Assembly: GCA_016202435.1 (NCBI GenBank)
Contig: JACQOR010000081.1
Span: 1-53,545 of the forward strand
Direction of reading: 5' to 3'
DNA from: Chloroflexota bacterium
Lineage (GTDB): Bacteria; Chloroflexota; UBA6077; SHYK01
DNA length: 53,545 nucleotides
Part shown: piece by piece, positions 1,691 to 13,729 of the stretch
How the letters are laid out: each line of letters opens with the position of its first letter
Position numbering within the stretch: position 1 is the first letter of the stretch
Notes under the pieces: model-generated
Databases searched by the model: none
Told to the model about the DNA's origin: nothing
What the model saw: only the letters and a program-made list of their open reading frames with translations
Program-made: the position numbers and the translations under genes

Positions 1691-2932
1691 TCAATTGGGT
1701 GTCCACGCAGCGCCGCCATCCCGACTGAGAAAGAATTGATTCTGGTCGTCGACCAAACCTACGATCTGACCACGGATCCCCACGGCGCTCACAGCACCCT
1801 TGAAGGGTAGGCGGATCCACTGAGCCCCCGCCGTGGTGCTCTGGAAGAGTCCGTCGCTGGTGGCAGCGAGCAGGACGTTGGTCGTTGGATCCGCTGCCAC
1901 GGCGCGTACGGAGCCCAAGACCGCCAAGTTGCCGGCGCCGCTGGCAAGCGTCCAGGTCCGTCCGCCGTCGGAGGAGCGCATCACCCTTCCGCCCACCGCG
2001 AGGAACAGAATGTCGGGCGTGCCCTGCAGCGCGGCCAAAGCGGCCACATCGCCTGCTGGAGCGGGGCCCTGGAACTCCCAATGCGTACCTTCTTGAGTCA
2101 CGAAGATGCCAAACCCAACCGCGTAGGCATAGATGCTTCCGCCCACTTTCTGAGCACCGTGGATGTCGGCGCCGGGAAGATCGTGGACTACCGGCGCCCA
2201 GCTTTGGGCATCGTCCCGGCTTTGCCAGACGACCTCATGGCCGAGCGCGAGCCAGCGTCCACCAGACACGTTCACGATGCCCATGAAGTCTCCGGCCGGA
2301 AGTACCGGCCTCCAGGTCCTCCCATCGGCGGAGCGGAGCGCCCCGGAATGGTGTCCGATCCAGAGGTCGGCTACCTCTCCGACAAACACCACGTGAGGAT
2401 GCTCGAGGGACAGTGTGGTCATCGGCGCCTGGGCCTCTTGCTGGGCGATCAAGCGCGTGTACAGCAGTCCAATGGCGGCTACGGCGAGAACCGCCAGGGC
2501 CGAGGCGGCGAGCAGTGTACTCTGGAGTCCCCAGGGCCGGCGGGTGGTCAATGCAGTTCTTGCACGGTGCCCGTCGAGAACGAGCGGCGACGCTGATGGT
2601 CCATTCGCGCTCACTTCACGGACCGCCCGCGACTGGAGGGCAGCCGCGAGTCGGGCACGTGCATCCCTCTCGGCAGTGACCTCTGCCAGCACCGCGGCTG
2701 CTCGGAGACGATAGCGGTCCCTCAGAACGTAGTAGTCGGGATCGGCGAGATTCCCTAACTCCCTGTCGACCTCAACGTCCTGTAGATCGGCGAGAGCTGA
2801 GCCGTACCGCTCGTCAAGCTCGCGGAGGCGGCCGACCCTGGGAGCAACCCGCCGACCAAATGCGCGGCTGAGCGGATACAGAGTGACCCCGAGCGCCACC
2901 AAGACGAGGACGAACGTGAATATGGCACTCAA
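1691..2932 (-). CDS. CcmI-like N-terminal membrane domain fused to a BNR/WD40-YVTN beta-propeller
   Basis: TM1, then LADLQDVEVDRELGNLADPDYYVLRDRY (CcmI N-terminal-like), TM2, and repeated S-x-D-G-G-x-x-W Asp-boxes. Overlaps the ccmH stop. Confidence 0.75.
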   Translation of the reverse strand: MSAIFTFVLVLVALGVTLYPLSRAFGRRVAPRVGRLRELDERYGSALADLQDVEVDRELGNLADPDYYVLRDRYRLRAAAVLAEVTAERDARARLAAALQSRAVREVSANGPSASPLVLDGHRARTALTTRRPWGLQSTLLAASALAVLAVAAIGLLYTRLIAQQEAQAPMTTLSLEHPHVVFVGEVADLWIGHHSGALRSADGRTWRPVLPAGDFMGIVNVSGGRWLALGHEVVWQSRDDAQSWAPVVHDLPGADIHGAQKVGGSIYAYAVGFGIFVTQEGTHWEFQGPAPAGDVAALAALQGTPDILFLAVGGRVMRSSDGGRTWTLASGAGNLAVLGSVRAVAADPTTNVLLAATSDGLFQSTTAGAQWIRLPFKGAVSAVGIRGQIVGLVDDQNQFFLSRDGGAAWTPN

Positions 2933-3393
2933 CGAAGGGGCTGGTCCTTCAATTGTTCTAGGCCCCGGTCGACCTCGGCGAGGTAGTCGGACAGTTGATC
3001 AGACGCCGGCGCCTGATCCTCGACGGAAGGGTGCCGGCGGATCACCCAGATGACGAACGCAATCGCTGCCGCCACTCCCAGGAAGGGTGTGATCCACACA
3101 GCGGCGGTGAATCCGGTCGTTGGGGGCGAAAGGAGTACCGACTCGCCGTACCGCTCCACGAAGTAGTTGAGAATCTGCTGGCGGGAATCGCCGGCTTCCA
3201 ACCTGGTCCTGATCAGTTCCCGCATCTGCGTGGCTAGCTGTGATGGTGAGTCGGCCACCGAGAGGCCCTGGCAGACGGGGCACCGTAGATCTCGCGCGAT
3301 CCCTCGCGCCTCGTCCTCGAGATCCTGTGCCGTGGCGCCGAGGGCGGTCAGCACAAGGGCCATGACCGCCACCAGGAGGGCTTTAAACTTCAA
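2929..3393 (-). CDS. ccmH: Cytochrome c-type biogenesis protein CcmH/NrfF
   Basis: Signal peptide, LRCPVCQGLSVADS motif, YFVERYGE..L.PP, C-terminal TM. Confidence 0.95.
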   Translation of the reverse strand: MKFKALLVAVMALVLTALGATAQDLEDEARGIARDLRCPVCQGLSVADSPSQLATQMRELIRTRLEAGDSRQQILNYFVERYGESVLLSPPTTGFTAAVWITPFLGVAAAIAFVIWVIRRHPSVEDQAPASDQLSDYLAEVDRGLEQLKDQPLR

Positions 3394-5395
3394 CGGTTGC
3401 CGCGGGCGCGGCCCTGGGCATCGGGACCGTCACGGTAGGTACGACGTGGGTGGGCTCGGGCCAGAGGCATACCAGGGTGCCGATCAGCAGGATCCAGCCG
3501 CCTGCCCAGATGAGGACTACCATCGGGTTTACCGTGGCCACGATGCTGATGCTGCCGTCATCTCCCCAACCCGCAAGCACGAGGTAGAGGTCCTCAAGGC
3601 GTGTCGTCTCTATAGCGATCCTGCTGGCCGGCTGGTTGGTGAAGTTGTCGTGGAAGACTTTTCCGGGGGAGAGGGTCCAAGCGCGGTCCTCGCTATCCGT
3701 TACGCGGACTCGGGCCGACACGACGTGCGCCCCCGGCTCGCGCGTCTCGAACAGGCCCTGGTTGGTCAGCGAGTATCGGCCAACTGAGCCAGTCGTCCCG
3801 AGCGGCAAGGTGAACTCCCGAGCCTGCTGATAGAAGGACGAGTTGACTATCCCGACCGCCATTACGGCGACGCCCAGGTGGACCAGGTAGCCACCATACC
3901 GAGGACGGGCGCGAGCGATGAGCCGAGCCAGAGCGATCGGCGCGGCCTCTGCCGTCGAGCGCATTCGGGCTCGACCCCCGCGCCAATACTCCCAGCCGAC
4001 CGTGGCGGCGGCGAAAGCCGCCGCCACTAGCGCGAGGATTGCCGCTGGCGTGCGGAGTCCGATGATTACCAGGAGCGTGGCAGCGACGCCGGCGATCGCC
4101 ATCGGTATGACGAAACTCCGCTGTATCTGCCGACCGGTGGCGCGGCGCCAGGGAAGCAGAGGACCGATCCCCATGAGGATCAGAAGGAGGAGCAAGAGCG
4201 GCCCGTTGACCTGCTGATAGAAAGGAGGGCCGACCGTTGCCTTGATGCCTCGGATCGCCTCGGAAAGGATCGGGAACACCGTTCCCCAATACGTGGCGAA
4301 GGCCACACTGGTAAGGAGGACGTTGTTGAGCAGGAATCCCGTTTCGCGGGAGGCCAGACTTTCGAAGCGGTCTTCGTCCTTGAGGTGTGGCAAACGGTGG
4401 AGCAAGACGGCGACCGAGAAGATCACGACGATAGCCAGGAATCCAAAGAAGTAGGGACCGATGGCCGACTGGGCGAAGGAGTGGACCGACGTGATGACGC
4501 CACTCCGTACCACGAAGGTCCCCTGCACTGCCAGTGCAAACGCCGCAATCACCAGTGACATGTTCCAGACCTTGAGCATGCCGCGCCGCTGCTGGACCAT
4601 GACCCCGTGGATGTAGGCCGTGATCGCCAGCCAGGGCATGATCGCGGAGTTCTCAACCGGGTCCCATCCCCAGTAACCGCCCCAGCCGAGGACGTGGTAG
4701 GCCCACCACGCACCTAAGAGGTTGCCGGCGGTGAGGAAGCTCCACGCTAAGAGTGAGTAGCGTCGCGTCGCACGCATCCAGTCCGCATCGGTGTGGCCGG
4801 CAAGCAGGGCTGACATCGCGAAGGCGTAGGGTACCGCGACACTCGCGTAGCCGAGAAGCAGGAAGGGTGGATGGATCAGCATTCCGCCGTCATAAAGGAG
4901 CGGATTCAGGCCCTGGCCGTCCGGTAGAGCTCCGGGCAGCCGGTTGAAAGGACCCGAGACGAAGCCCAGGATGAAGAGGAAGAATGCCTCCACTGACATG
5001 AGCACGCCGATGGCGTACCCCAGGAGATGGTGGAGGCGGTGCTGCTCCCGCCAGATCGCCACAGCCGCGAGGATAGAAAGGCCCAACGCCCAGAACAGCA
5101 GCGAGCCCTCTTGCCCACTGTAGAAGGCCGCTATCACGAGCTGCGGGGGCATCGACCGGCTCGAATGGTCGGCAACGTATTGAACCGAGTAGTCGTGGTT
5201 GACGAAGGCGAGAAGGAGGGAGATCGCTGCCAGCGTGAGCATTCCGGCCACCGCGAACGCGCCGTTGCGCGCGGCGAGAACGAGCCGGTAGTCTCCGGTG
5301 CGACCGCCCAGGAAGCCCGCCGTTACTGCGCAAGCAGCTGCCACGAGGGCAGCCAGCACCGCACCTTGCCCAAGGTCGGCGCTGCTCAGCGGCAT
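3383..5395 (-). CDS. ccmF: Heme lyase CcmF/NrfE
   Basis: GQEGSLLFW, HPPFL, WWD motif WGGYWGWDPVEN, SVHSFA; multi-TM, 670 aa. Confidence 0.97.
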   Translation of the reverse strand: MPLSSADLGQGAVLAALVAAACAVTAGFLGGRTGDYRLVLAARNGAFAVAGMLTLAAISLLLAFVNHDYSVQYVADHSSRSMPPQLVIAAFYSGQEGSLLFWALGLSILAAVAIWREQHRLHHLLGYAIGVLMSVEAFFLFILGFVSGPFNRLPGALPDGQGLNPLLYDGGMLIHPPFLLLGYASVAVPYAFAMSALLAGHTDADWMRATRRYSLLAWSFLTAGNLLGAWWAYHVLGWGGYWGWDPVENSAIMPWLAITAYIHGVMVQQRRGMLKVWNMSLVIAAFALAVQGTFVVRSGVITSVHSFAQSAIGPYFFGFLAIVVIFSVAVLLHRLPHLKDEDRFESLASRETGFLLNNVLLTSVAFATYWGTVFPILSEAIRGIKATVGPPFYQQVNGPLLLLLLILMGIGPLLPWRRATGRQIQRSFVIPMAIAGVAATLLVIIGLRTPAAILALVAAAFAAATVGWEYWRGGRARMRSTAEAAPIALARLIARARPRYGGYLVHLGVAVMAVGIVNSSFYQQAREFTLPLGTTGSVGRYSLTNQGLFETREPGAHVVSARVRVTDSEDRAWTLSPGKVFHDNFTNQPASRIAIETTRLEDLYLVLAGWGDDGSISIVATVNPMVVLIWAGGWILLIGTLVCLWPEPTHVVPTVTVPMPRAAPAATVEV

Positions 5396-5402
5396 GAGGT
5401 GT

Positions 5403-5873
5403 TCACGGTCGTAGTGCCCCCTCGTAGATAGCGCGCAGCGCGATGGCCAGCGCGTATATCAAGATACCGATCATCGCCAGTTGCCAGTTGATCGAAACCC
5501 GGGGCGAAAGCGCTTCTGTCGCGCCCAATCCTGCTTTTCGTGCCAGCCAGAACATCCAAACGGCCAATCCCACCTTTGCGGCCAGCACCACCGGGTAGCT
5601 GGGGGGAACTGGCGCGCTAGCTAGCCGCTGAACCGCCAGAATAGTGCCGGTGAGCACGAAGACCGCGACACCGGCTCCGATGGTCTCACGCAGCACTGGG
5701 GAGGAGGCTGACGAGTGGCGGTCAGAACTCAGTGCCACCACCAGGGCGCTGCCGACCCAGAGCACCGCAGCTAGCGCGTGCGCCAAACGCAGGGCTCCCA
5801 GCAGCACCTCTTCAACCGCGGGAGCGATGGTTGTCCGAGCCCTCCTCCACCGCCCTTCCTGACGGGCCCCCAC
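5403..5873 (-). CDS. CopD-like 4-TM membrane protein (start uncertain)
   Basis: RLAHALAAVLWVGS, VFVLTG and LAAKVGL resemble CopD/DUF4149-type helices; 7 nt gap to ccmF. Confidence 0.65.
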   Translation of the reverse strand: MGARQEGRWRRARTTIAPAVEEVLLGALRLAHALAAVLWVGSALVVALSSDRHSSASSPVLRETIGAGVAVFVLTGTILAVQRLASAPVPPSYPVVLAAKVGLAVWMFWLARKAGLGATEALSPRVSINWQLAMIGILIYALAIALRAIYEGALRP

Positions 5874-5891
5874 ATTCTAGAGCGAAGCTTC

Positions 5892-6068
5892 CTAGAGCCG
5901 CTCGTCTCGGTCGTCGACCGGGCGGCGGGGTCCGTCGTCGTGGGGCCGCGTCCGCGCGATGATCCACGTGCCGATGCTGAGCAAAAAGAACAGCGATGCC
6001 CACATGACAAGGAGCAGAGCCGCAAACAGAATAATGATCCACCAGATAGAGAAACCGGGAGTTTCCAC
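5892..6068 (-). CDS. Small single-TM hypothetical protein (~58 aa)
   Basis: GTG at 6068 with GGAG upstream; long hydrophobic stretch followed by a charged tail; fills the gap between same-strand genes. Confidence 0.55.
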   Translation of the reverse strand: METPGFSIWWIIILFAALLLVMWASLFFLLSIGTWIIARTRPHDDGPRRPVDDRDERL

Positions 6069-6082
6069 GAACCCCGCTCCTG

Positions 6083-6595
6083 CTACGCGAACAAGTATAG
6101 ACGGCACTCTCGCCCGGGACGCACTTCGAGGACTCGGACCGTAGGCGAGTCGAAACCCTTGGCCTCAAAGCGGAGCAACTGGGAGTCCCACTCACGCAGT
6201 TCCATCGGTTCGGTTCCGAAGGGAAAGGCCGCCAGGAGTAGCGCAGGCGAACCTCCAGATAGCGTGGACAGTCCCCGAATCCTGTCCACCTCCCGAGCGA
6301 CTTCCTCTACCGAGGCGATTGTCGTGCGCGCCCCACGGCCGGTACTCGTGTAGCTTGTGATGAGGCCCCGAACGGCCAGCCACCACTGCGCGCCTTCCCT
6401 TACCATGGAGACGTCGCACCCCTGATAGTCCGGACGCAGATCACGAATCGCGCCGGCCCGCGCGAGATCGCCGAGGACGCTCAGCGTCTCGATCTTCATC
6501 CAGGCGTCGGGACGGAGACGATGGCGGTCGAAAAGCTGGAAGTAGGACACTCGTGCGGCAAGATGTTCGAGCAAAGCGTCCCACATTGCGTCCAC
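6083..6595 (-). CDS. Hypothetical protein (170 aa), possible degenerate PD-(D/E)XK-like fold
   Basis: GAGGTG SD before the GTG; globular alpha/beta composition; lies immediately downstream of tRNA-Leu. Confidence 0.75.
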   Translation of the reverse strand: MDAMWDALLEHLAARVSYFQLFDRHRLRPDAWMKIETLSVLGDLARAGAIRDLRPDYQGCDVSMVREGAQWWLAVRGLITSYTSTGRGARTTIASVEEVAREVDRIRGLSTLSGGSPALLLAAFPFGTEPMELREWDSQLLRFEAKGFDSPTVRVLEVRPGRECRLYLFA

Positions 6596-6684
6596 TCCAT
6601 CACCTCACGGGCCCGCTGGGACTCACCGTCGAGACGCGTCGGCTGAAAGGCCGGTGCGTACGGGTCGGCGATCCCCCGCCAGGG

Positions 6685-6766
6685 TGGGGAAGGCGGGACT
6701 CGAACCCGCACGCCTTGCGGCACGTGATCCTAAGTCACGCTCGTCTGCCAATTCCGACACTCCCCC
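6685..6766 (-). tRNA. tRNA-Leu (anticodon TAG), CCA not encoded
   Basis: Minus strand GGGGGAGTGTCGGAATTGGCAGACGAGCGTGACT-TAG-GATCACGTGCCGCAAGGCGTGCGGGTTCGAGTCCCGCCTTCCCCA: acceptor stem, D loop, long variable arm, GTTCGA T loop. Confidence 0.97.
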
Positions 6767-6774
6767 TGTGGTGC

Positions 6775-6783
6775 ACAATACCA
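6775..6783 (-). promoter_or_regulatory. Extended -10 promoter candidate for tRNA-Leu
   Basis: TGGTATTGT on the minus strand ending 8 nt upstream of the mature tRNA 5' end. Confidence 0.5.
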
Positions 6784-6836
6784 TCGGCTTCCATTGGGAG
6801 GCCAGCACTTGACACCGGACCGGTTCTTGGCGCTAC

Positions 6837-7922
6837 GTGGATAGTGCTTCACTCTGGCAGCCCCATTTGACCAGCGAAAGATTTGAGATCGAGGCGACGC
6901 GTGGAAGCGCACGCGTCGGGTCTTTGCCCACGCCCCACGGTACCGTGCTCACACCCGCGTTCTGCCCTCGCGCTGACGAGGGGATTGTTCCTGGGCTGGG
7001 CCCGGATGAAGTAAGGCAGGCGGGTGTTGCCCTGCTGGCCGCGAGTGGTCTCGATCTTCCCCTTCGGCCCGGGATCGAGTCGATCCAGCGACTGGCCGGC
7101 ATCCATCGATTTGTCGGGTGGCCCGGTCCGTTGCTCGTGGACGCCGGTACCCAGCGGCTATGTGAACTCGACGCAGCCGGTGGGATCCACGGCCGCCTGG
7201 AGCGAGTAGATGCTGACGGAGTCTCATACGCGTCGCCAGTCGACGGGTCTGTTCGGCGGATCACTCCGGCTTCTAGCGTGGAGGCGCTGGAAGCTCTGGG
7301 TGCCGATATCGCCGTGCCCCTCTATGACCCAGGGCGCACTCTTGGAACGCAGAACCGGAGAGGGGAAGTGCGAGGCCTCTCGGCTCTGTGGGCGGCAGCG
7401 GCGTTCCGATCCCGAACGGGGAACACCGGTCTCATGCTAGTCGGAGGGGTTCAGGACGTTCGAAATAGAGACGAGGCCGCATGGTACGCGGCCAAGCTGC
7501 CCCTTGATGGGTACGCGTTCTTGGCTGTTAGCCGGACCCCGCGTTTCGGTCCGCTGCTTGAGATCTTGCCCGCAGCCACGGTCCGGTATCTTGCCACGGC
7601 TGGTGGACCCGACGAGTTGGCCATCGCACTGGCTGCGGGATTTGATCTTGTGAGCTCGGATGCTCCGTGGCGCGATGCGCGCGAGGGTCTGGCCTACACG
7701 GAACGCGGCACCGTGTCGTTGAAGGGCCCGCCGATAGTTGCAGAGCGTGGGCCAATCGAAGCCGATTGCCTTTGCTACACCTGCCAGGCGCTCGAGCGGC
7801 CCTACGTGCGCCATCTCTTTGGCACGCACGAGATGCTCGGCCCGCGGCTGGTGAGTGTGCACAATCTCGCCTTTGTGGCGAGACTGTTCGCCCGGTTTCG
7901 GACAGACCTGTTGCGCGCATGA
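6837..7922 (+). CDS. Queuine tRNA-ribosyltransferase (TGT) family protein with degenerate catalytic motifs
   Basis: ARVGSLPTPHGTVLTPAF N-terminus, LRPG, HRFVGWPGPLLVD, Zn site CLCYTC...HNL. DSGGFQ reads DAGTQR and DMFDC reads DLVSS. Confidence 0.9.
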   Translation: MDSASLWQPHLTSERFEIEATRGSARVGSLPTPHGTVLTPAFCPRADEGIVPGLGPDEVRQAGVALLAASGLDLPLRPGIESIQRLAGIHRFVGWPGPLLVDAGTQRLCELDAAGGIHGRLERVDADGVSYASPVDGSVRRITPASSVEALEALGADIAVPLYDPGRTLGTQNRRGEVRGLSALWAAAAFRSRTGNTGLMLVGGVQDVRNRDEAAWYAAKLPLDGYAFLAVSRTPRFGPLLEILPAATVRYLATAGGPDELAIALAAGFDLVSSDAPWRDAREGLAYTERGTVSLKGPPIVAERGPIEADCLCYTCQALERPYVRHLFGTHEMLGPRLVSVHNLAFVARLFARFRTDLLRA

Positions 7923-8013
7923 AACCTTTGCATCGGCATCCAACTGGGGCCCGTGACCTGGCGAAAGCGGGATGGCAAGTCGCCCCGACCCTATCACGAG
8001 TACATCACACTCG

Positions 8014-8043
8014 TTGACTGCCTTTTTGGGCCGATGCTAGGAT
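8014..8043 (+). promoter_or_regulatory. Sigma70-type promoter for udg-ftsK
   Basis: TTGACT (8014-8019), 18 nt spacer, TAGGAT (8038-8043) with TGn extension. Confidence 0.55.
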
Positions 8044-8078
8044 GGCTAGCAGCCTAGTGTTCTTATAGGGGAGCCTCG

Positions 8079-8705
8079 TTGCCCAGTCTCGATGAACTCC
8101 GAGCCCAAATCACGCAATGCCGACTCTGCGACCTCAGCAAAGCTCGAACGCAGGCGGTCCCTGGAGAGGGTAACCCCAGGGCTCAGGTAATGCTTATTGG
8201 GGAGGGCCCGGGCTTCTACGAGGACCAGCGGGGTCGGCCCTTCGTGGGGCCTGCGGGTCATTTCCTGGACGAACTCCTCGGTTTGGCCGGTTTCAGTCGA
8301 GGTGACGTGTTCATCACGAACGTGGTGAAGTGCCGCCCACCGGGGAACCGAGACCCGGAGCCTGAGGAGCTCGCTGCCTGCGATGGACATCTCAGGGCCC
8401 AGATTGAGGTCATCCAGCCAAACGTCATCGTCACGCTGGGGCGCTTCTCGCTGGCGAAGTTCGTCCCCGGCGTCCGCAGCATGAAGGAGGTCCACGGCCG
8501 TGCGATACCCTATCAGGGGCGTCTGGTCGTAGCGATGTATCACCCAGCGGCGGCCCTGCATCAGGGCGGTCTGCGACGAGTGATTGAGGAGGACTTCCGG
8601 ATGCTCCCGATGATCGTCGCGCGAAAAGCGCCGGCCGGTGCGGTGGCCGAGCCTGCGCCTGCGGCCAGTCCAGCCGCGGAACAGATCTCGCTCTTCGCCC
8701 TGTAG
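8079..8705 (+). CDS. Family 4 uracil-DNA glycosylase (Fe-S)
   Basis: CRLC, GEGPG..ED..GRPFVG, NVVKCRPPGNRDP, YHPAA motifs. Confidence 0.95.
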   Translation: MPSLDELRAQITQCRLCDLSKARTQAVPGEGNPRAQVMLIGEGPGFYEDQRGRPFVGPAGHFLDELLGLAGFSRGDVFITNVVKCRPPGNRDPEPEELAACDGHLRAQIEVIQPNVIVTLGRFSLAKFVPGVRSMKEVHGRAIPYQGRLVVAMYHPAAALHQGGLRRVIEEDFRMLPMIVARKAPAGAVAEPAPAASPAAEQISLFAL

Positions 8706-8714
8706 CCCGGACGA

Positions 8715-10880
8715 TTGACGGCGACTCGCACCCCCTCTGCTCGCGGGACTCGACCGGGGATCAGAACTGGTTCGCGCGCCCGTGGATCGGCTCTGCGGGC
8801 GTCTCGCTCGACGGCCAAAGGGCCGCCTATCGATATGCCCGACCTGCCCGGCTGGCAGCTCGCCGGGACGTCATTGATCGCCGTGGCTCTCGTCGGACTC
8901 CTGGCGCTTACTTGGCCCGAAGGGCCCATCTTCCCCCAGGTAGCGCGATTCTTCACCCATTGGATCGGTTGGCTCGCCGGACTAGGGTTATTGTGGATTG
9001 GCGCGGTCGGAATCGTGGTGGTCGCTCCCCAAGCACGCCAGCAGCGCTGGGTTTGGGCGAAGCTGGTTGAAACCGGAATGCTCGCCGTTGGCGTCCTGGT
9101 GTTGGATGCCATCGAAGGGTCACGGGCTTACGGCCAGGTCGGCTACGCCCTGGCAACGTCACTCACGCGACTCTTAGGTCATGGCGCCACAACGACGGTG
9201 ATGGTCGCGGCGGTCGTCGGCTCCGGAGTCGCAGCCGTCGGGATTCGTAGTGATCAGATCTGGAGCTGGGGCCGCAGCGTGGCAGCGCTCACCTGGGGAG
9301 GGGCGTGCTTGACCGTCGGGGCGACGAGTTTCTTGCTGCATCGACTCGTCGCCTGGCTTGAACGCCGGAGGGCCAGCGAAGCTTCCGGTTCTCCGCGCGT
9401 CACCACCGGCGCGTCGGCCCACACGCCGGTGGTCTCCGGAGATCTTGCTGTTCTAGAGTTGGCGGCGGCCGGAAGTACCTGGAAAGCGCCACCTGTGGGG
9501 ATTCTTGCGTCGCGCAGGCCACCGGAGCCCAGTGACGGTAATCTGCGCGAGCAAGCTCGGGTGATAGAAGATACCTTGGCCAGCTTCAACATCGGCGCTC
9601 GCGTGCTGGAGATCAATCAAGGACCGGCCGTGACCCAGTTTGGCATTGAGCCGGCCCAGGGGGTACCCGTTAGCAGGATCATGGCGCGCGTAAATGACCT
9701 GGCCCTGCGTCTCGGCGCTACGCCCATTCGCATGGAAGCCCCGGTTCCTGGCCGCCGCATGCTCGGGGTCGAGGTTCCCAACGCCCGGGTTTCGCTCGTG
9801 GGGCTCCGAGAGATTCTGGAGAGCGATGTCTTCGCCAGAACGAAAGCGCAGATCCCATTGGCGCTCGGCCGAGACATCGCCGGTAAACCGGTTGTTGCGG
9901 ACCTGGCACGCATGCCCCACCTGCTCATTGCCGGTGCGACTGGCTCTGGAAAGAGCGTCGCCATCAACTCGATGGTGGCGTGCCTGTTGTCCCAGTTCAC
10001 GCCTGACCAGCTCCAGCTAGTGATGGTGGACCCGAAGATGGTGGAACTGACGGGTTACAACGGCATTCCCCATTTGCGCATGCCGGTCGTGACGGAGATG
10101 GACCGCATCGTGGGGACGTTAAAGTGGGTGGGGCACGAAATGGAGCGGCGCTACAAGCTTTTCGCGGCCCATTCTCAGCGGAACATCGACGGTTTCAATC
10201 AGCACGTCCGAAGGCTAGGAGAGCGGCCGCTCCCGTACATTGTGGTCATTATCGATGAGCTTGCGGACCTCATGATGACGGCCCCAGATGAGGCGGAAAA
10301 GACTATTTGCCGCCTGGCGCAACTCGCCCGGGCGACCGGCATCCATCTGGTAGTCGCGACGCAGCGGCCCTCCGTGGACGTGGTCACCGGACTCATCAAA
10401 GCGAATTTCCCGAGCAGGATCGCTTTCGCGGTGACGTCGCAGATTGATTCCCGGGTTATCCTCGACATGGTCGGGGCGGAACGGTTGCTGGGGCGGGGCG
10501 ACATGCTCTATCTGCCGCCGGACGCGAGCAAGCTGGTGCGCGTCCAGGGAACGTATGTCGCGGAGGAAGAGATCGAGGCGCTGGCAGCCTATTGGCGGCA
10601 GCTCGGCGCGCCCCAGTACGACGGTCAAGACCTCGAGGACGTTGAGAACCTGGGGAGACCGGTCGACCCGGCGGTCGATGACCTGTACGAGCGAGCGGTA
10701 GAGTTGGCGCAGCAGACTCGCCGTATGTCAGTGTCGCTCCTTCAGCGGAGGCTTGGGATCGGCTATCCGAGGGCCGCACGGTTGGTGGACCTCCTAGAGG
10801 AGCGCGGGATCATCGCCTCTGCCGAGGACGGCCGCACTCGTGAGGTGCTCGTCCAGGGAGAGTTGCCTCCACCAGAATGA
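8715..10880 (+). CDS. ftsK: DNA translocase FtsK/SpoIIIE
   Basis: N-terminal TMs, PHLLIAGATGSGKS, IIDELADLMM, ATQRPSVDV, gamma domain SLLQRRLGIGYPRAARL. Confidence 0.97.
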   Translation: MTATRTPSARGTRPGIRTGSRARGSALRASRSTAKGPPIDMPDLPGWQLAGTSLIAVALVGLLALTWPEGPIFPQVARFFTHWIGWLAGLGLLWIGAVGIVVVAPQARQQRWVWAKLVETGMLAVGVLVLDAIEGSRAYGQVGYALATSLTRLLGHGATTTVMVAAVVGSGVAAVGIRSDQIWSWGRSVAALTWGGACLTVGATSFLLHRLVAWLERRRASEASGSPRVTTGASAHTPVVSGDLAVLELAAAGSTWKAPPVGILASRRPPEPSDGNLREQARVIEDTLASFNIGARVLEINQGPAVTQFGIEPAQGVPVSRIMARVNDLALRLGATPIRMEAPVPGRRMLGVEVPNARVSLVGLREILESDVFARTKAQIPLALGRDIAGKPVVADLARMPHLLIAGATGSGKSVAINSMVACLLSQFTPDQLQLVMVDPKMVELTGYNGIPHLRMPVVTEMDRIVGTLKWVGHEMERRYKLFAAHSQRNIDGFNQHVRRLGERPLPYIVVIIDELADLMMTAPDEAEKTICRLAQLARATGIHLVVATQRPSVDVVTGLIKANFPSRIAFAVTSQIDSRVILDMVGAERLLGRGDMLYLPPDASKLVRVQGTYVAEEEIEALAAYWRQLGAPQYDGQDLEDVENLGRPVDPAVDDLYERAVELAQQTRRMSVSLLQRRLGIGYPRAARLVDLLEERGIIASAEDGRTREVLVQGELPPPE

Positions 10881-10963
10881 CCGAAGCTCTTGTCAGGGAA
10901 GAGCTGACGTCCGGTCCGGTTCGCGGGGAAGACCTGGCTCAGGCGAAGCGCTAGGAGCGGACC

Positions 10964-13729
10964 TTGCTTCGAGTCCTTGCCGTCCTCGTCGGACTTGGGC
11001 TTGCGACGGTCATTTTTTATCCGGAGATCGCGCTTACCGGTCGCATCCTCGCTGATTATGACGTGTGGACATACTTCTATCCGCTGCGGCAGTATGGTGC
11101 TGATGCCCTGAAGGCCGGCCGGTTCCCGTTGTGGAACCCCGACACGTTTCTGGGCGCCCCGTTTTTTGCTAATCCCCAGACATCGCTTCTATATCCGGGA
11201 ACGTTGCTCTTTCTCGTTCTGCCGGTTCCGGACGCCTACACAGTCTCTGTCCTACTGCACGTCTTTCTGACTGCGGCCGCAGCCCACGCCTTCATGCGTG
11301 TCGTCCTCGGCGTCCGGACTGTGCCCGGGCTCTTGGGCGCCTTCGCCCTCGCCTTCGGAGGGGCGGTCTCGGCGCAGATCGGCCATATCAATCAGCTCAG
11401 TGCAACCCCGTGGCTGCTGGTTGTCGCGGTCTGTACCGACCTGGCTTTTCGCCGGCGGAGTCTGGTGTGGCTCTCCCTCGGAGCTATGGCACTAGGAATC
11501 CAACTGCTCGCCGGGCACGCGCAGATTGCCTATATGACCGCGTGGGTGGTGGGGATCTTGCTGCTCTGGCGAGTGGTTGAGGAAGTGCGCTCTGGGATTC
11601 CCGCCGAAGACGCTGGACCAGCAGTATCGCGCTGGAGGACGGTGCTCCGCGGGATCGGCATATTTGCCTTGATGGTGCTTCCTGGCGCGGCGGTGGCAGC
11701 GGCTCAACTCGTGCCCACCGCCGAGCTTTCTGGAGAATCGGTCCGAAGCGGCGGATTGTCCTTTCCCGAGGCCGTCACCTTCTCGCTGCCGCCAGATCAA
11801 ATTGCACGGGCGCTGCTCCCGGGCTATTGGGCGAATGTGTATAGCGAATTCATGGGATACGTGGGAACTCTCCCCCTCTTCCTGGCGATCCTCGCTCTGG
11901 CCTTCGCCCCCGGTTTACGAGTTCTCTTTGCACTGCTCGTTGCCTCGTTGGGTCTTGCTCTGGCTCTGGGGGGGGCCAACCCACTCTATGGCGTGGTGTA
12001 CGAGGTCGTGCCCGGGATCGACCTGTTCCGCGTTCCAGCACGCTGGCTGCTCGTGTACAGCTTGGGGGTGGCCGCGTTGGCGGCCCTCGGCGGCGAATGG
12101 ATCTTGGACCGCCCGCTGCCGACCGCCAACGTGTGGCGGCCACCCGTCGTGCTGGGAATCGCATCATTGATCGTCGTCCTGTTCACGGAGCTCGTGGGCG
12201 ACGTTCCGGATCGAATCGTGGCGCTTTGGATGTGTGGCTTCATAGGAGCGGGTGTCGTCGCGCTGCTGGCCTTGCGGCGACCCGGAAGAGCAGTCTCGGC
12301 GCTGCTGGTGCTGGGATGTCTGGCAGAACTGCGCGCCACCGCCCTGGACTTGCCGGCGCGAAACCCGGTGCCTGCCGAGGCGTATACGACGCGGCGAGAA
12401 GTCCCCAGTTACCTGGCCCAGGCGGGGCAGGGGCGCCTGCTCAGCATTGCTCCCACGGAGTACGAGGTGCCCGACAGCGCGATCCTTGCCGCGAGCCATC
12501 CCAACCTTGGCTCCGCGGCTTCGCTGGCGTTCAAGACCGCACTCAAGTTGGATGAGGTCATGTCGCCTAACGTCCCGCTGCGGTTTGGCCTCAGCACAGT
12601 AGATGGCTATGACGGGGGCGTGCTCCCGCTGCGTAGATACCTCGAAATGGCGAGCCTTTTGGTCCCCAGATCCGATCTTAGAAGTGACGGCGTGCTGCGC
12701 ACTCGTCTGCTGGCTGTTCCGGAACCGGCGCTGCTGGATCTTTTCCGGGTCAGAGCGGTCATTGCGAATCAGGTGAACGACATAGACATAGACGGGGTGC
12801 GTTTCGACACGAGCAGCGCGCGACGACTGGTTGCCGGAGCCGCCGTCACAGTGGACCTGTCCGCGCCGCTCGAGCTGCGGGAGATCGCGCTCCTGGCCAG
12901 CACGGATGAGCTGTCGACGCTGGACACCGTGGGGACGGTGGTCCTGGAACGTGCGGACGGCTCCCGAGAAGAGGTGCCCTTGCTTCCGGAGCGCCACGTG
13001 TTTGCTCGCGGGGCGCCGGGGCCCCTCAGAGCGGCACGGCGAGTAATTCAGCCGGGGCAGTCCGGCGGTGAGGACACCGCCGTGAGGATCGGGGTCGCGG
13101 CGGGGGAAGCGGTGACCCGGGTGACATACCACTGGAACGGGCCCGGTGTCTGGGAGTTGCGGGGCGCGGTTCTGGTGGGAACAGATGGCCGGCAGGAGCA
13201 GCTAGTCCTGCTTCCTGAAGTGCGGCGGACGCTGTTCCCCGTGCTTAAAGTGTACGAACCTACATGGGCGCATCCGGCCGTGACAGACCTCGTGCTGCAG
13301 GCCGAGACAGTGGATGACGAGCGGGCGCTCGCAGGACTGCGGGCGGAGCCCGCATCGCCGCAGTGGCTGGTTCGCCTGGCGGAGGGCTCGGACGCAATGC
13401 CGCAGGAAGGTGCGGGGCGGGGACGGATGTTGCTCGTCGACCGTTCCCCGGAGCGGCTGGGCTTCGAGCGCGTTGGCTCTGACGGCGCGGGCTATCTGGT
13501 GGTGGACGATGCCTGGGTGCCAGGCTGGCGGGCGTGGATAGACGATGAGGAGGTTCGAGTACAGCGCGCGAACGTGCTCTTCAAGGCCGTCTGGGTTCCA
13601 AGCGGAGCGCAGAAGGTGGTCCTGAGCTATGAGCCTAACTCAGTCAAGGTCGGGTTCGTGGCCAGTGCGCTCGGCGTCCTCGCCATCGTTGTGCTCCTGG
13701 TCCTGGGGCTGAGAGGTCGTCGGCTCTAA
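10964..13729 (+). CDS. YfhO-family polytopic membrane protein (GT-C-like glycosyltransferase)
   Basis: GRFPLWNP...GAPFFANPQ, LLAGHAQ, FRVPARW, C-terminal LVVDDAWVPGWRA...RANVLFKAVWVPSG. Confidence 0.85.
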   Translation: MLRVLAVLVGLGLATVIFYPEIALTGRILADYDVWTYFYPLRQYGADALKAGRFPLWNPDTFLGAPFFANPQTSLLYPGTLLFLVLPVPDAYTVSVLLHVFLTAAAAHAFMRVVLGVRTVPGLLGAFALAFGGAVSAQIGHINQLSATPWLLVVAVCTDLAFRRRSLVWLSLGAMALGIQLLAGHAQIAYMTAWVVGILLLWRVVEEVRSGIPAEDAGPAVSRWRTVLRGIGIFALMVLPGAAVAAAQLVPTAELSGESVRSGGLSFPEAVTFSLPPDQIARALLPGYWANVYSEFMGYVGTLPLFLAILALAFAPGLRVLFALLVASLGLALALGGANPLYGVVYEVVPGIDLFRVPARWLLVYSLGVAALAALGGEWILDRPLPTANVWRPPVVLGIASLIVVLFTELVGDVPDRIVALWMCGFIGAGVVALLALRRPGRAVSALLVLGCLAELRATALDLPARNPVPAEAYTTRREVPSYLAQAGQGRLLSIAPTEYEVPDSAILAASHPNLGSAASLAFKTALKLDEVMSPNVPLRFGLSTVDGYDGGVLPLRRYLEMASLLVPRSDLRSDGVLRTRLLAVPEPALLDLFRVRAVIANQVNDIDIDGVRFDTSSARRLVAGAAVTVDLSAPLELREIALLASTDELSTLDTVGTVVLERADGSREEVPLLPERHVFARGAPGPLRAARRVIQPGQSGGEDTAVRIGVAAGEAVTRVTYHWNGPGVWELRGAVLVGTDGRQEQLVLLPEVRRTLFPVLKVYEPTWAHPAVTDLVLQAETVDDERALAGLRAEPASPQWLVRLAEGSDAMPQEGAGRGRMLLVDRSPERLGFERVGSDGAGYLVVDDAWVPGWRAWIDDEEVRVQRANVLFKAVWVPSGAQKVVLSYEPNSVKVGFVASALGVLAIVVLLVLGLRGRRL

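Follow-up and report, generated by a model that had tools for sequence, protein, structure and literature searches.

A TGT-family paralog without TGT catalytic residues in a Chloroflexota genome, a candidate partner of the canonical enzyme

We analyzed a stretch of 53,545 nucleotides from a Chloroflexota bacterium (GenBank assembly GCA_016202435.1, contig JACQOR010000081.1; the whole stretch is called the window) and, within it, an open reading frame (ORF) at positions 6837 to 7922 that encodes a member of the tRNA-guanine transglycosylase (TGT) family. The ORF is almost certainly a genuine gene, and its product would have the TGT fold but lack TGT chemistry. The same genome carries a canonical TGT gene, and the window protein keeps the zinc site and one face of the family's dimer interface, a face that many canonical copies in related genomes have lost. 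In our estimation, the chances are about even that the protein acts as a noncatalytic partner of the canonical enzyme. The host assembly (G000; 1.76 Mb, 105 contigs, 77% complete) includes the window as contig C61.

A TGT scaffold with a rewritten active site

The ORF listing gives a single unbroken frame on the forward strand, with a GTG start and 361 amino acids (aa); a public gene call for the same frame (P0001) begins 10 codons further in, at the TTG at 6867, and yields 351 aa, and either may be the true N terminus. The product matches the TGT domain PF01702 with 216.1 bits over residues 25 to 357 (cut-off, 26.3) and the family model TIGR00449 with 185.8 bits (cut-off, 47.6). With the Tgt equivalog TIGR00430 it scores 181.5 bits, under the cut-off of 306.75. 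An initial annotation made from the DNA alone had described an intact, full-length TGT scaffold free of frameshifts, and the open frame and domain match bear this out. Among solved structures, the best HMMER matches are the TGTs of Zymomonas mobilis and other bacteria (E value, 6e-46), followed by QTRT1 (1e-37); the QTRT2 chain is matched at 1.9e-5 and only over residues 295 to 355, the C-terminal 61. The protein stops about 20 residues short of the ends of canonical TGTs, with which it has about 37% identity, and it carries a 7-residue remnant of an insertion characteristic of the type B lineage described below.

A word-based homolog search with the protein returned only itself and four canonical TGTs (at most 37% identity) and missed its real relatives. 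The closest protein in a HMMER scan of 1.84 billion representatives was P0006, with 53 to 55% identity and the same DLVSS motif. Among genome contigs, a search with the ORF alignment, using generic N-terminal patterns, gave 61 ordinary TGT loci and no orthologs. Among metagenome contigs, a search for relatives gave 11 loci, all at 42% identity or less, so that an unsaturated ratio of nonsynonymous to synonymous substitution (dN/dS) was not obtainable.

Substitutions were read from the HMMER alignment to Z. mobilis TGT chains and from motif tables, and reference sites carry Z. mobilis numbers. As seen there, FMPVGT is changed to FCPRAD, NTYHL to SGLDL, TDSGGYQ to VDAGTQR (with Asp102 retained), FDEC to LYDP (Asp156 to Tyr), and IVQGG to LVGGV. 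The pocket segment GGLSVGE, which holds Gly229-Gly230-Leu231-Ala232, is replaced by LAVS with a deletion, YLMGVG of the Met260 region has become YLATAG, and the nucleophile motif DMFDC has become DLVSS; the PTR motif, Gly229/Gly230, and Met260 are thus all altered. Every motif substitution listed in the initial annotation was seen in this alignment, including the replacement of the nucleophile by the serine encoded at 7653 to 7655, since Ser273 aligns with Asp280. With the Asp280 nucleophile, Asp156, and the residues of the base pocket lost, the window protein is predicted to be unable to perform guanine/preQ1 exchange. The zinc ligands, for which retention had been proposed, are complete (C311, C313, C316, and H342, in the arrangement CxCxxC...H). 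The features referred to in this analysis are as follows.

6837 to 7922, forward strand: TGT paralog assigned to type B, catalytically degenerate (ORF, PF01702, structure alignment, motif table, tree)
6990 to 6992, forward strand: Pro52 at the Lys52 position; Lys52 lost (alignment, interface table)
7110 to 7121, forward strand: Phe92 and Trp95 (FVGW), dimer-interface residues, retained (alignment)
7140 to 7142, forward strand: codon of Asp102, with its motif rewritten to VDAGTQR (alignment, motif table)
7653 to 7655, forward strand: Ser273 (AGC) at the position of the Asp280 nucleophile (alignment, motif table, codon reading)
7659 to 7661, forward strand: Asp275 (GAT) of "SSD," not conserved (comparison with P0006 and G007)
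7767 to 7784, forward strand: CLCYTC with the zinc ligands Cys311, Cys313, and Cys316; same motif in the intact type B copy of G005
7803 to 7832, forward strand: dimer-face helix with Tyr323, His326, and Glu332 (Z. mobilis Y330, H333, and E339), invariant in a 33-row type B alignment
7860 to 7862, forward strand: His342, fourth zinc ligand, in the HNL motif (alignment)
6683 to 6766, reverse strand: tRNA-Leu(TAG), divergent neighbor; synteny marker in 6 genera of the family

Type A and type B TGTs among related genomes

A PF01702 search of the host assembly found two places, the window ORF and a copy on contig C44 (444.7 bits). The C44 copy has 371 aa, all catalytic and pocket motifs, and a TIGR00430 score of 417.5 bits, and it adjoins queA and ruvB; the window ORF is 37% identical to it. 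The second, canonical tgt that the initial annotation had in mind is therefore present, beside queA. The genome also has queC. For QueF, the best match was 20.3 bits, below the cut-off, and YhhQ was not found, which, with the genome 77% complete, does not argue for their absence. A second, short QueA-like match lies at G000:C21:11935-12087 (L136); it covers the last 51 positions of PF02547 with 68.9 bits in a 117-aa frame and may be a fragment or a small paralog.

We distinguish two types of TGT copy. Type A has canonical motifs, forms one clade (support of 99 in a 106-row tree and 97 in a 39-row tree), and lies next to queA in the genomes whose neighborhood was inspected; the C44 copy belongs to it. 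Type B has an insertion of 25 to 40 residues after about residue 111, the motifs AFDE(P/C)T, GG-SLG(K/R), HLLGIG, and DxFDCVAPTR, and the segment F(S/T)RAYLRHLFxAxELL. In the 39-row tree, 17 type B and degenerate rows face 22 canonical rows across one branch with a Shimodaira-Hasegawa-like approximate likelihood ratio test (SH-aLRT) value of 100. In the 106-row tree the degenerate copies are grouped at the midpoint as long branches, probably through long-branch attraction, and orthology was therefore based on synteny and the 39-row tree. Beside the type A tgt of G007, at 2427 to 2523 (reverse strand) of contig C9 (L025), ARAGORN calls a 97-base "tRNA-???" with the four-base anticodon gggt, possibly a false call.

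The window ORF lies divergently from tRNA-Leu(TAG), and the gene order ccmF, tRNA-Leu(TAG), gene, (uracil-DNA glycosylase [UDG]), ftsK is found in G000, G004, G005, G006, and G007. In G002 the ccmF/tRNA-Leu/gene/ftsK locus is split over two contig ends, and in G003 the downstream genes match the window locus. The equivalent locus holds an intact type B gene in G005 and G003. The window ORF bears the marks of type B in its side of the tree, this shared locus, the CxCYTC motif, the insertion remnant, and the YxxH...E face; these marks assign it, in degenerate form, to a distinct type B lineage of TGTs in its bacterial class. It does not stand alone, since the wider lineage has intact members. 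Relatives in the matching chromosomal place likewise have open frames.

We next consider the occurrence of both types in G000 and 40 related genomes, most of which have two or three TGT-family places; because the genomes are related, they are not independent, and the metagenome-assembled genomes are incomplete. One genome, G037, is known from table rows only and was left out of the motif comparison and further counts. Two of the 41 genomes (64% and 71% complete) have no TGT match, five have one canonical copy, 27 have A and B together, and seven have B without A (G009, G010, G020, G035, G037, the 57% complete G032, and G031, which has another odd copy). The single copy found by the PF01702 search in G009, G010, G020, and G035 (74 to 90% complete) is an intact type B. 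Type A, in contrast, is never found without B (27/27), and the B copy accompanying it is one open frame in 24 of these genomes, split between contigs in G002 and G026, and cut at a contig end in G034. B is intact in 17 of the 27; in four (G004, G033, G034, and G036) it keeps the catalytic aspartates but has a degenerate pocket; and in six (G000, G002, G006, G007, G013, and G016) it lacks Asp102 or Asp280. All six genomes with such an Asp-dead B have type A, and the case in which a genome with the dead paralog lacks a catalytic-type tgt was not encountered among them. The Asp-dead copies span at least three families (f1, f7, and f5), and within genus g17, G016 and G033 have A with a degenerate B, and G035 has an intact B and no A. 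Catalytic residues are, from this comparison of sequences, lost repeatedly and independently within the type B lineage, in at least three families.

In a class-wide survey of 66 genomes, high-scoring type B copies turned up in 10 family codes. G062 and G063, each a single contig, have type B as their only TGT, and the G062 copy is intact. Intact type B presumably works as a self-sufficient TGT and as a homodimer. The survey also showed that TGT paralogs have radiated in the class, with two to three in each genome (L141 to L160 of G041 to G062, and L059 of G031). One extra type carries GGESIGY / YAMGVG / DLFDS (families f10 and f12) and another FLPDAT / CLDDC / GGWPLDA / HALGIG / xxFDSALPTRDARQG (f10, f11, and L059 of G031); in both, all three catalytic aspartates are present. 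In G004, an in-frame gap of about 35 residues removes TDSGGFQ, with Asp102, from type A (L020, G004:C137, ORF 2875 to 3906, reverse strand), and the type B copy keeps both aspartates but has lost its PTR and YLMGVG-type motifs. The gap is either an assembly artifact or the mark of a genome without a fully canonical TGT.

Dimer interface, proposed pairing, and alternatives

In the Z. mobilis homodimer, an aromatic cluster of Trp326, Tyr330, and His333 packs on Phe92' of the mate, Tyr330 and His333 bond main-chain carbonyls of the mate's loop-helix motif (residues 47 to 62), and Lys52 is salt-bridged to Glu339' and also reaches U35 of the bound tRNA. The same preprint reports that His333Ala strongly destabilizes the homodimer and that Tyr330Phe barely disturbs it at pH 8.5, and it calls Tyr330 "strictly conserved in bacterial Tgt" (Nguyen et al., bioRxiv 10.1101/2020.09.01.277731). 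The initial annotation had considered the interface retained in the window protein, and this is true of Phe92, Trp95, Tyr330, His333, and Glu339 but not of Lys52, which is replaced by Pro, or Trp326, which is replaced by Leu.

The interface was tallied for both types. Among 32 type B copies, Tyr330 and Glu339 are kept in all 32 and His333 in 31; Lys52 is kept in 21 of 21 intact copies with a letter there and in 1 of 9 degenerate or partly degenerate ones. Type A has Tyr330 in 10, His333 in 9, and Glu339 in 16 of 26 copies with letters, together with Lys52 and Asp102 in 26/26 and Asp156 and Asp280 in 27/27. Canonical copies in genomes without B (nine, five from this tally and four from the class-wide motif table) keep Tyr330, His333, and Glu339 in 9/9, along with Lys52 and the catalytic aspartates. 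Among the best 150 library representatives, 26 lack Asp102 or Asp280. These dead proteins keep each zinc cysteine in 25 of 26 and the zinc histidine (His349) in all 26, and Tyr330, His333, and Glu339 in 25 each and Trp95 in 26; Lys52 is left in only 2. As a side observation, many otherwise canonical, queA-linked type A copies, among them L040 (G019), L052 (G028), L032 (G012), and L030 (G011), have lost Tyr330 and His333 (for example, WPLGVVAALFQAHEPLA), residues described in the literature as conserved strictly or to a high degree in bacterial Tgt. In G019 and G028, a type A with Val330/Ala333 accompanies an intact type B.

These tallies suggest that one half of the interface, formed by the B helix and the A loop beside the A active site, is under constraint and that the other half, formed by the A helix and the B loop beside the dead B site, has drifted. 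The asymmetry fits an A·B heterodimer with one working site and is our main argument for it. We propose that the window ORF gives a folded TGT-family pseudoenzyme, and we infer from the sequence comparison that it would pair with the catalytic type A TGT of the C44 locus through the Tyr330/His333/Glu339 face. This helix would clamp the partner's loop-helix motif (residues 47 to 62, with Lys52) beside the partner's active site, resulting in an asymmetric A·B heterodimer with a single working active site, in which the window protein might stabilize the active-site loop of type A, hold the tRNA, or both. The bacterial TGT dimer is described as binding one tRNA (PMC5699537), so a dead second active site would be tolerable; a 2026 cryo-electron microscopy study reports that E. 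coli TGT acts on two tRNAs, "unlike all other known TGTs" (PMC13416341). The A·B pair would be a bacterial, convergent counterpart of the eukaryotic QTRT1/QTRT2. Extended to this uncultured groundwater class, the proposal is that TGT has become an obligate A·B heterodimer, with A providing chemistry without the aromatic "glue" and B, freed from catalysis, providing the glue and losing its active site independently in at least three families, a convergent re-invention of QTRT1/QTRT2 seen at several intermediate stages; to this more tentative idea we give slightly less than even credence.

A complex of the paralog with the canonical TGT, suggested in the initial annotation as a subject for modeling, was modeled from type A (alignment A2, 24 rows) and the window protein (alignment A3, 33 rows), both alignments being custom-made. 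The score was 0.92 in three runs, versus 0.00 for the best of 3 controls, with at least 94% of contacts common to the runs and a partner pLDDT (predicted local distance difference test) of at least 83. Of 157 solved complexes, 116 reach the mark applied, as do 2 of 215 mismatched pairs; with custom alignments such as these, the counts are only approximate. The modeled interface corresponds to that of canonical TGTs, with F92, Y323, H326, and E332 among its residues.

Several observations weigh against a pairing of the two proteins. The model, although it passes, resembles the solved TGT homodimers and QTRT1/QTRT2; it speaks for likeness only and does not tell A·B from A2 and B2. The A and B genes are unlinked, and the window copy lacks Lys52 and Trp326, which are interface residues themselves. 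The host type A has Phe at position 330 and keeps His333; because of the latter, and because Tyr330Phe is mild in Z. mobilis, it may still homodimerize. The census genomes, being related, are not independent observations. Moreover, intact B is the only TGT in G062, G063, G009, G010, G020, and G035, and since type B is able to work without A, heterodimerization is not required by ancestry. Lastly, in the groundwater strain sets X6 and X7 the ORF differs by about 9 to 12%, compared with mostly 4 to 7% in the flanking genes, which points to relaxed constraint (one ftsK piece of X6 is about 11% diverged, and in X5 the ORF is not above its neighbors). The coding signature of the ORF is also weaker than that of the genes around it: its GC content by codon position is 0.72/0.54/0.67, with a GC2 (0.54) above that of the neighboring genes and a GC3 (0.67) below theirs (0.71 to 0.79).

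The alternative that survives best, although we consider it unlikely, at somewhat better than one chance in five, is a stand-alone noncatalytic binder, probably a homodimer, that serves as a regulator, chaperone, or sensor with tRNA or other RNA, a 7-deazaguanine compound, or a protein as its ligand. Dead copies could homodimerize, since the side chains of Tyr330 and His333 make their bonds to main-chain carbonyls of the other subunit. A binder has a precedent in Cap10 of type IV CBASS (cyclic-oligonucleotide-based antiphage signaling system), which has a TGT fold and is reported to bind a deazaguanylated protein N terminus (bioRxiv 10.1101/2025.04.06.647259). The absence of linkage to tgt and queA would suit such a protein, and the paralog radiation of the class makes new functions plausible. 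However, a stand-alone binder leaves unexplained why only type A lost the Tyr330/His333 face while keeping Lys52, and the closest relatives vary in their base pockets, contrary to what one would expect of a conserved small-molecule site. In addition, a PADLOC scan of the window protein gave no model at an E value of 0.01 or less, Cap10 and DpdA included, and no CBASS or dpd genes lie near it (the neighbors are ccmF, tRNA-Leu, UDG, and ftsK).

Slightly less probable still is a redundant duplicate in slow decay, that is, a type B gene made dispensable by type A and surviving as an unbroken relic. Such decay would agree with the loss of catalytic residues in several lineages, always with type A present, with the shortened C terminus, with the weaker GC contrast between codon positions and the divergence above the neighbors in X6 and X7, and with faster evolution: between G000 and G007, B is 41% and A 68% identical. 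For intact B, identity exceeds that of A in the same genome pairs (75% versus 64%, 88% versus 82%, and 85% versus 75%). The dN/dS of the window ORF by the Nei-Gojobori method (NG86) is 0.29 with the G007 ortholog and 0.43 with that of G006, at a saturated dS of 1.7 to 2.2; type A gives 0.15 and 0.21 for the same genome pairs. Degenerate B within genus g17 gives 0.31 to 0.54 (dS, 0.83 to 1.2), and A and intact B range from 0.14 to 0.24 (dS was 0.55 to 2.5 overall and saturated for pairs in family f1). The dN/dS comparison across orthologs that the initial annotation had pointed to gives values below 1 and above those of type A.

Against such decay stands the retention of B in 27 of 27 type A genomes, as one open frame in 24, and that of the zinc site and Tyr330, His333, Glu339, and Trp95 in 25 or 26 of the 26 dead representatives, the latter being unexpected under neutrality. 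Orthologs at 36 to 55% identity still yield a confident TGT fold (partner pLDDT of at least 83). Strain variation points the same way. Contigs of four groundwater runs were aligned to positions 5400 to 11000 and compared by indels and per-contig difference counts. Strains diverged by about 2%, 10%, and 12% cover the ORF, and the 12% set spans 6768 to 7867 without gaps. The frame-breaking indels listed lie in or beside intergenic DNA, at 5850, 5859, and 5869 (the start of the ORF at 5403 to 5873) and at 7987 and 10909, with one more at 7923, directly after the stop. Among all indels listed, a single one, an in-frame +6 in ftsK, falls well within a gene. Thus, at about 12% divergence the ORF has no indels, and the 156-base spacer after it has two. 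Our reading is that constraint on the gene is relaxed but real and acts on its frame, fold, zinc site, and one dimer face. In the same runs, summed contig depth is 10 to 100x higher at 6709 to 6895 (tRNA-Leu) and at 10262 to 10448 (a short ftsK segment), likely owing to conserved sequence from many other organisms and not to copy number.

That the protein is still an enzyme working through Asp102, Asp270, or Asp275, in transglycosylation or a new reaction on another substrate, is very improbable: Asp102 and Asp270 (Z. mobilis Asp277) are kept here, and the family is described as plastic, with DpdA acting on DNA and orthologs differing for preQ0, preQ1, and queuine (PMC5699537), but the site of Asp102 is occupied by Thr, Glu, and Ser in G007, G006, and G002, respectively, the degenerate orthologs share no acidic residue that could serve instead, and Asp156, Gly229/Gly230, Met260, and PTR are all changed. 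Asp275, the aspartate of "SSD" that the initial annotation had considered as a displaced nucleophile, is not conserved, with Gly at this site in P0006 and Gln in the ortholog of G007, and is an unlikely substitute.

Regarding the neighborhood, the initial annotation had noted the head-to-head position with tRNA-Leu; the arrangement is there, but it is confined to family f1 (6 genomes), and we take it as a synteny marker and not as a functional link. In G005, a phage-type integrase and a helix-turn-helix gene lie beside the tRNA-Leu(TAG) that flanks type B (locus L022, G005:C66, 1583 to 2767, forward strand), which suggests that this tRNA gene is an integration site there. Between tRNA-Leu and ccmF the window has two ORFs without a Pfam match, both on the reverse strand, at 6083 to 6595 (170 aa) and 5403 to 5873 (156 aa, membrane-protein-like). 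Downstream of the window ORF, after 156 bases and on the same strand, lies a family-4-type UDG gene (8079 to 8705; PF03167, 117.6 bits); a UDG gene is also found near type B in G005 and G003, with another gene in between.

Comparison with known TGT systems

If the candidate partnership holds, a bacterial lineage with both paralogs would let the origin of an asymmetric enzyme be traced stage by stage, from both copies intact through a degenerate pocket to a fully dead copy, and would allow a direct test of why TGT needs a second subunit. The dead copies also matter for annotation. Since they are open frames with a strong TGT match, automatic annotation is likely to call them active queuine tRNA-ribosyltransferases, and queuosine pathways inferred from metagenomes would then be wrong by one enzyme.

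Bacterial Tgt (EC 2.4.2.29; Z. mobilis and E. coli) is similar to the window protein in its near full-length Pfam domain, in about 37% identity, in its zinc site, and in Phe92, Trp95, Tyr330, His333, and Glu339. The window protein differs from it in failing the equivalog model (181.5 versus 306.75 bits), in lacking Asp280, Asp156, GGLxVGE, YLMGVG, Lys52, and Trp326, and in its shorter C terminus. Closer relatives are the intact type B copies (L022 of G005 and L160 of G062), which have in common with it CxCYTC, HNLAF, the insertion (a remnant in the window protein) after residue 111, the side of the tree, and, within the family, the chromosomal locus. Unlike the window protein, they keep the three catalytic aspartates and Lys52, can be the only TGT of their genome, and pass the Tgt equivalog (P0014, 408.7 bits; P0048, 445 bits).

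The bacterial TGT paralogs that we found in the literature are DpdA and Cap10. Like the window protein, they are TGT-family paralogs with roles beyond queuosine at tRNA position 34 (Q34), and Cap10 is a binder. Membership in either group was rejected given the lack of a PADLOC match and of a defense context, and the nearest sequences are tRNA-type TGTs. For a noncatalytic partner of a bacterial TGT, no account was found in the full-text literature, in which subscription journals and supplements were thinly covered, so that an earlier mention is possible.

The counterpart closest in kind is eukaryotic. The eukaryotic TGT is described as pairing QTRT1 with QTRT2, an accessory subunit devoid of the active-site Asp; the same account treats the bacterial TGT as a homodimer and pairing with a dead subunit as a feature of eukaryotes (PMC5699537). 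The initial annotation had proposed the window protein as a bacterial analog of QTRT2. The likeness stands as far as the TGT fold, the zinc site, the missing active-site Asp, and a catalytic paralog in the same genome are concerned, and the role proposed for the window protein, as second subunit of a dimer with one working site, would extend it. The heterodimer is established for QTRT1/QTRT2 and inferred for the window protein, which is not a QTRT2 by descent: the match to QTRT2 (1.9e-5 over 61 C-terminal residues) is far behind that to bacterial TGT (6e-46), and the two do not belong to the same subfamily. The window lineage arose within the bacterial TGTs, and its likeness to QTRT2 would thus be convergent.

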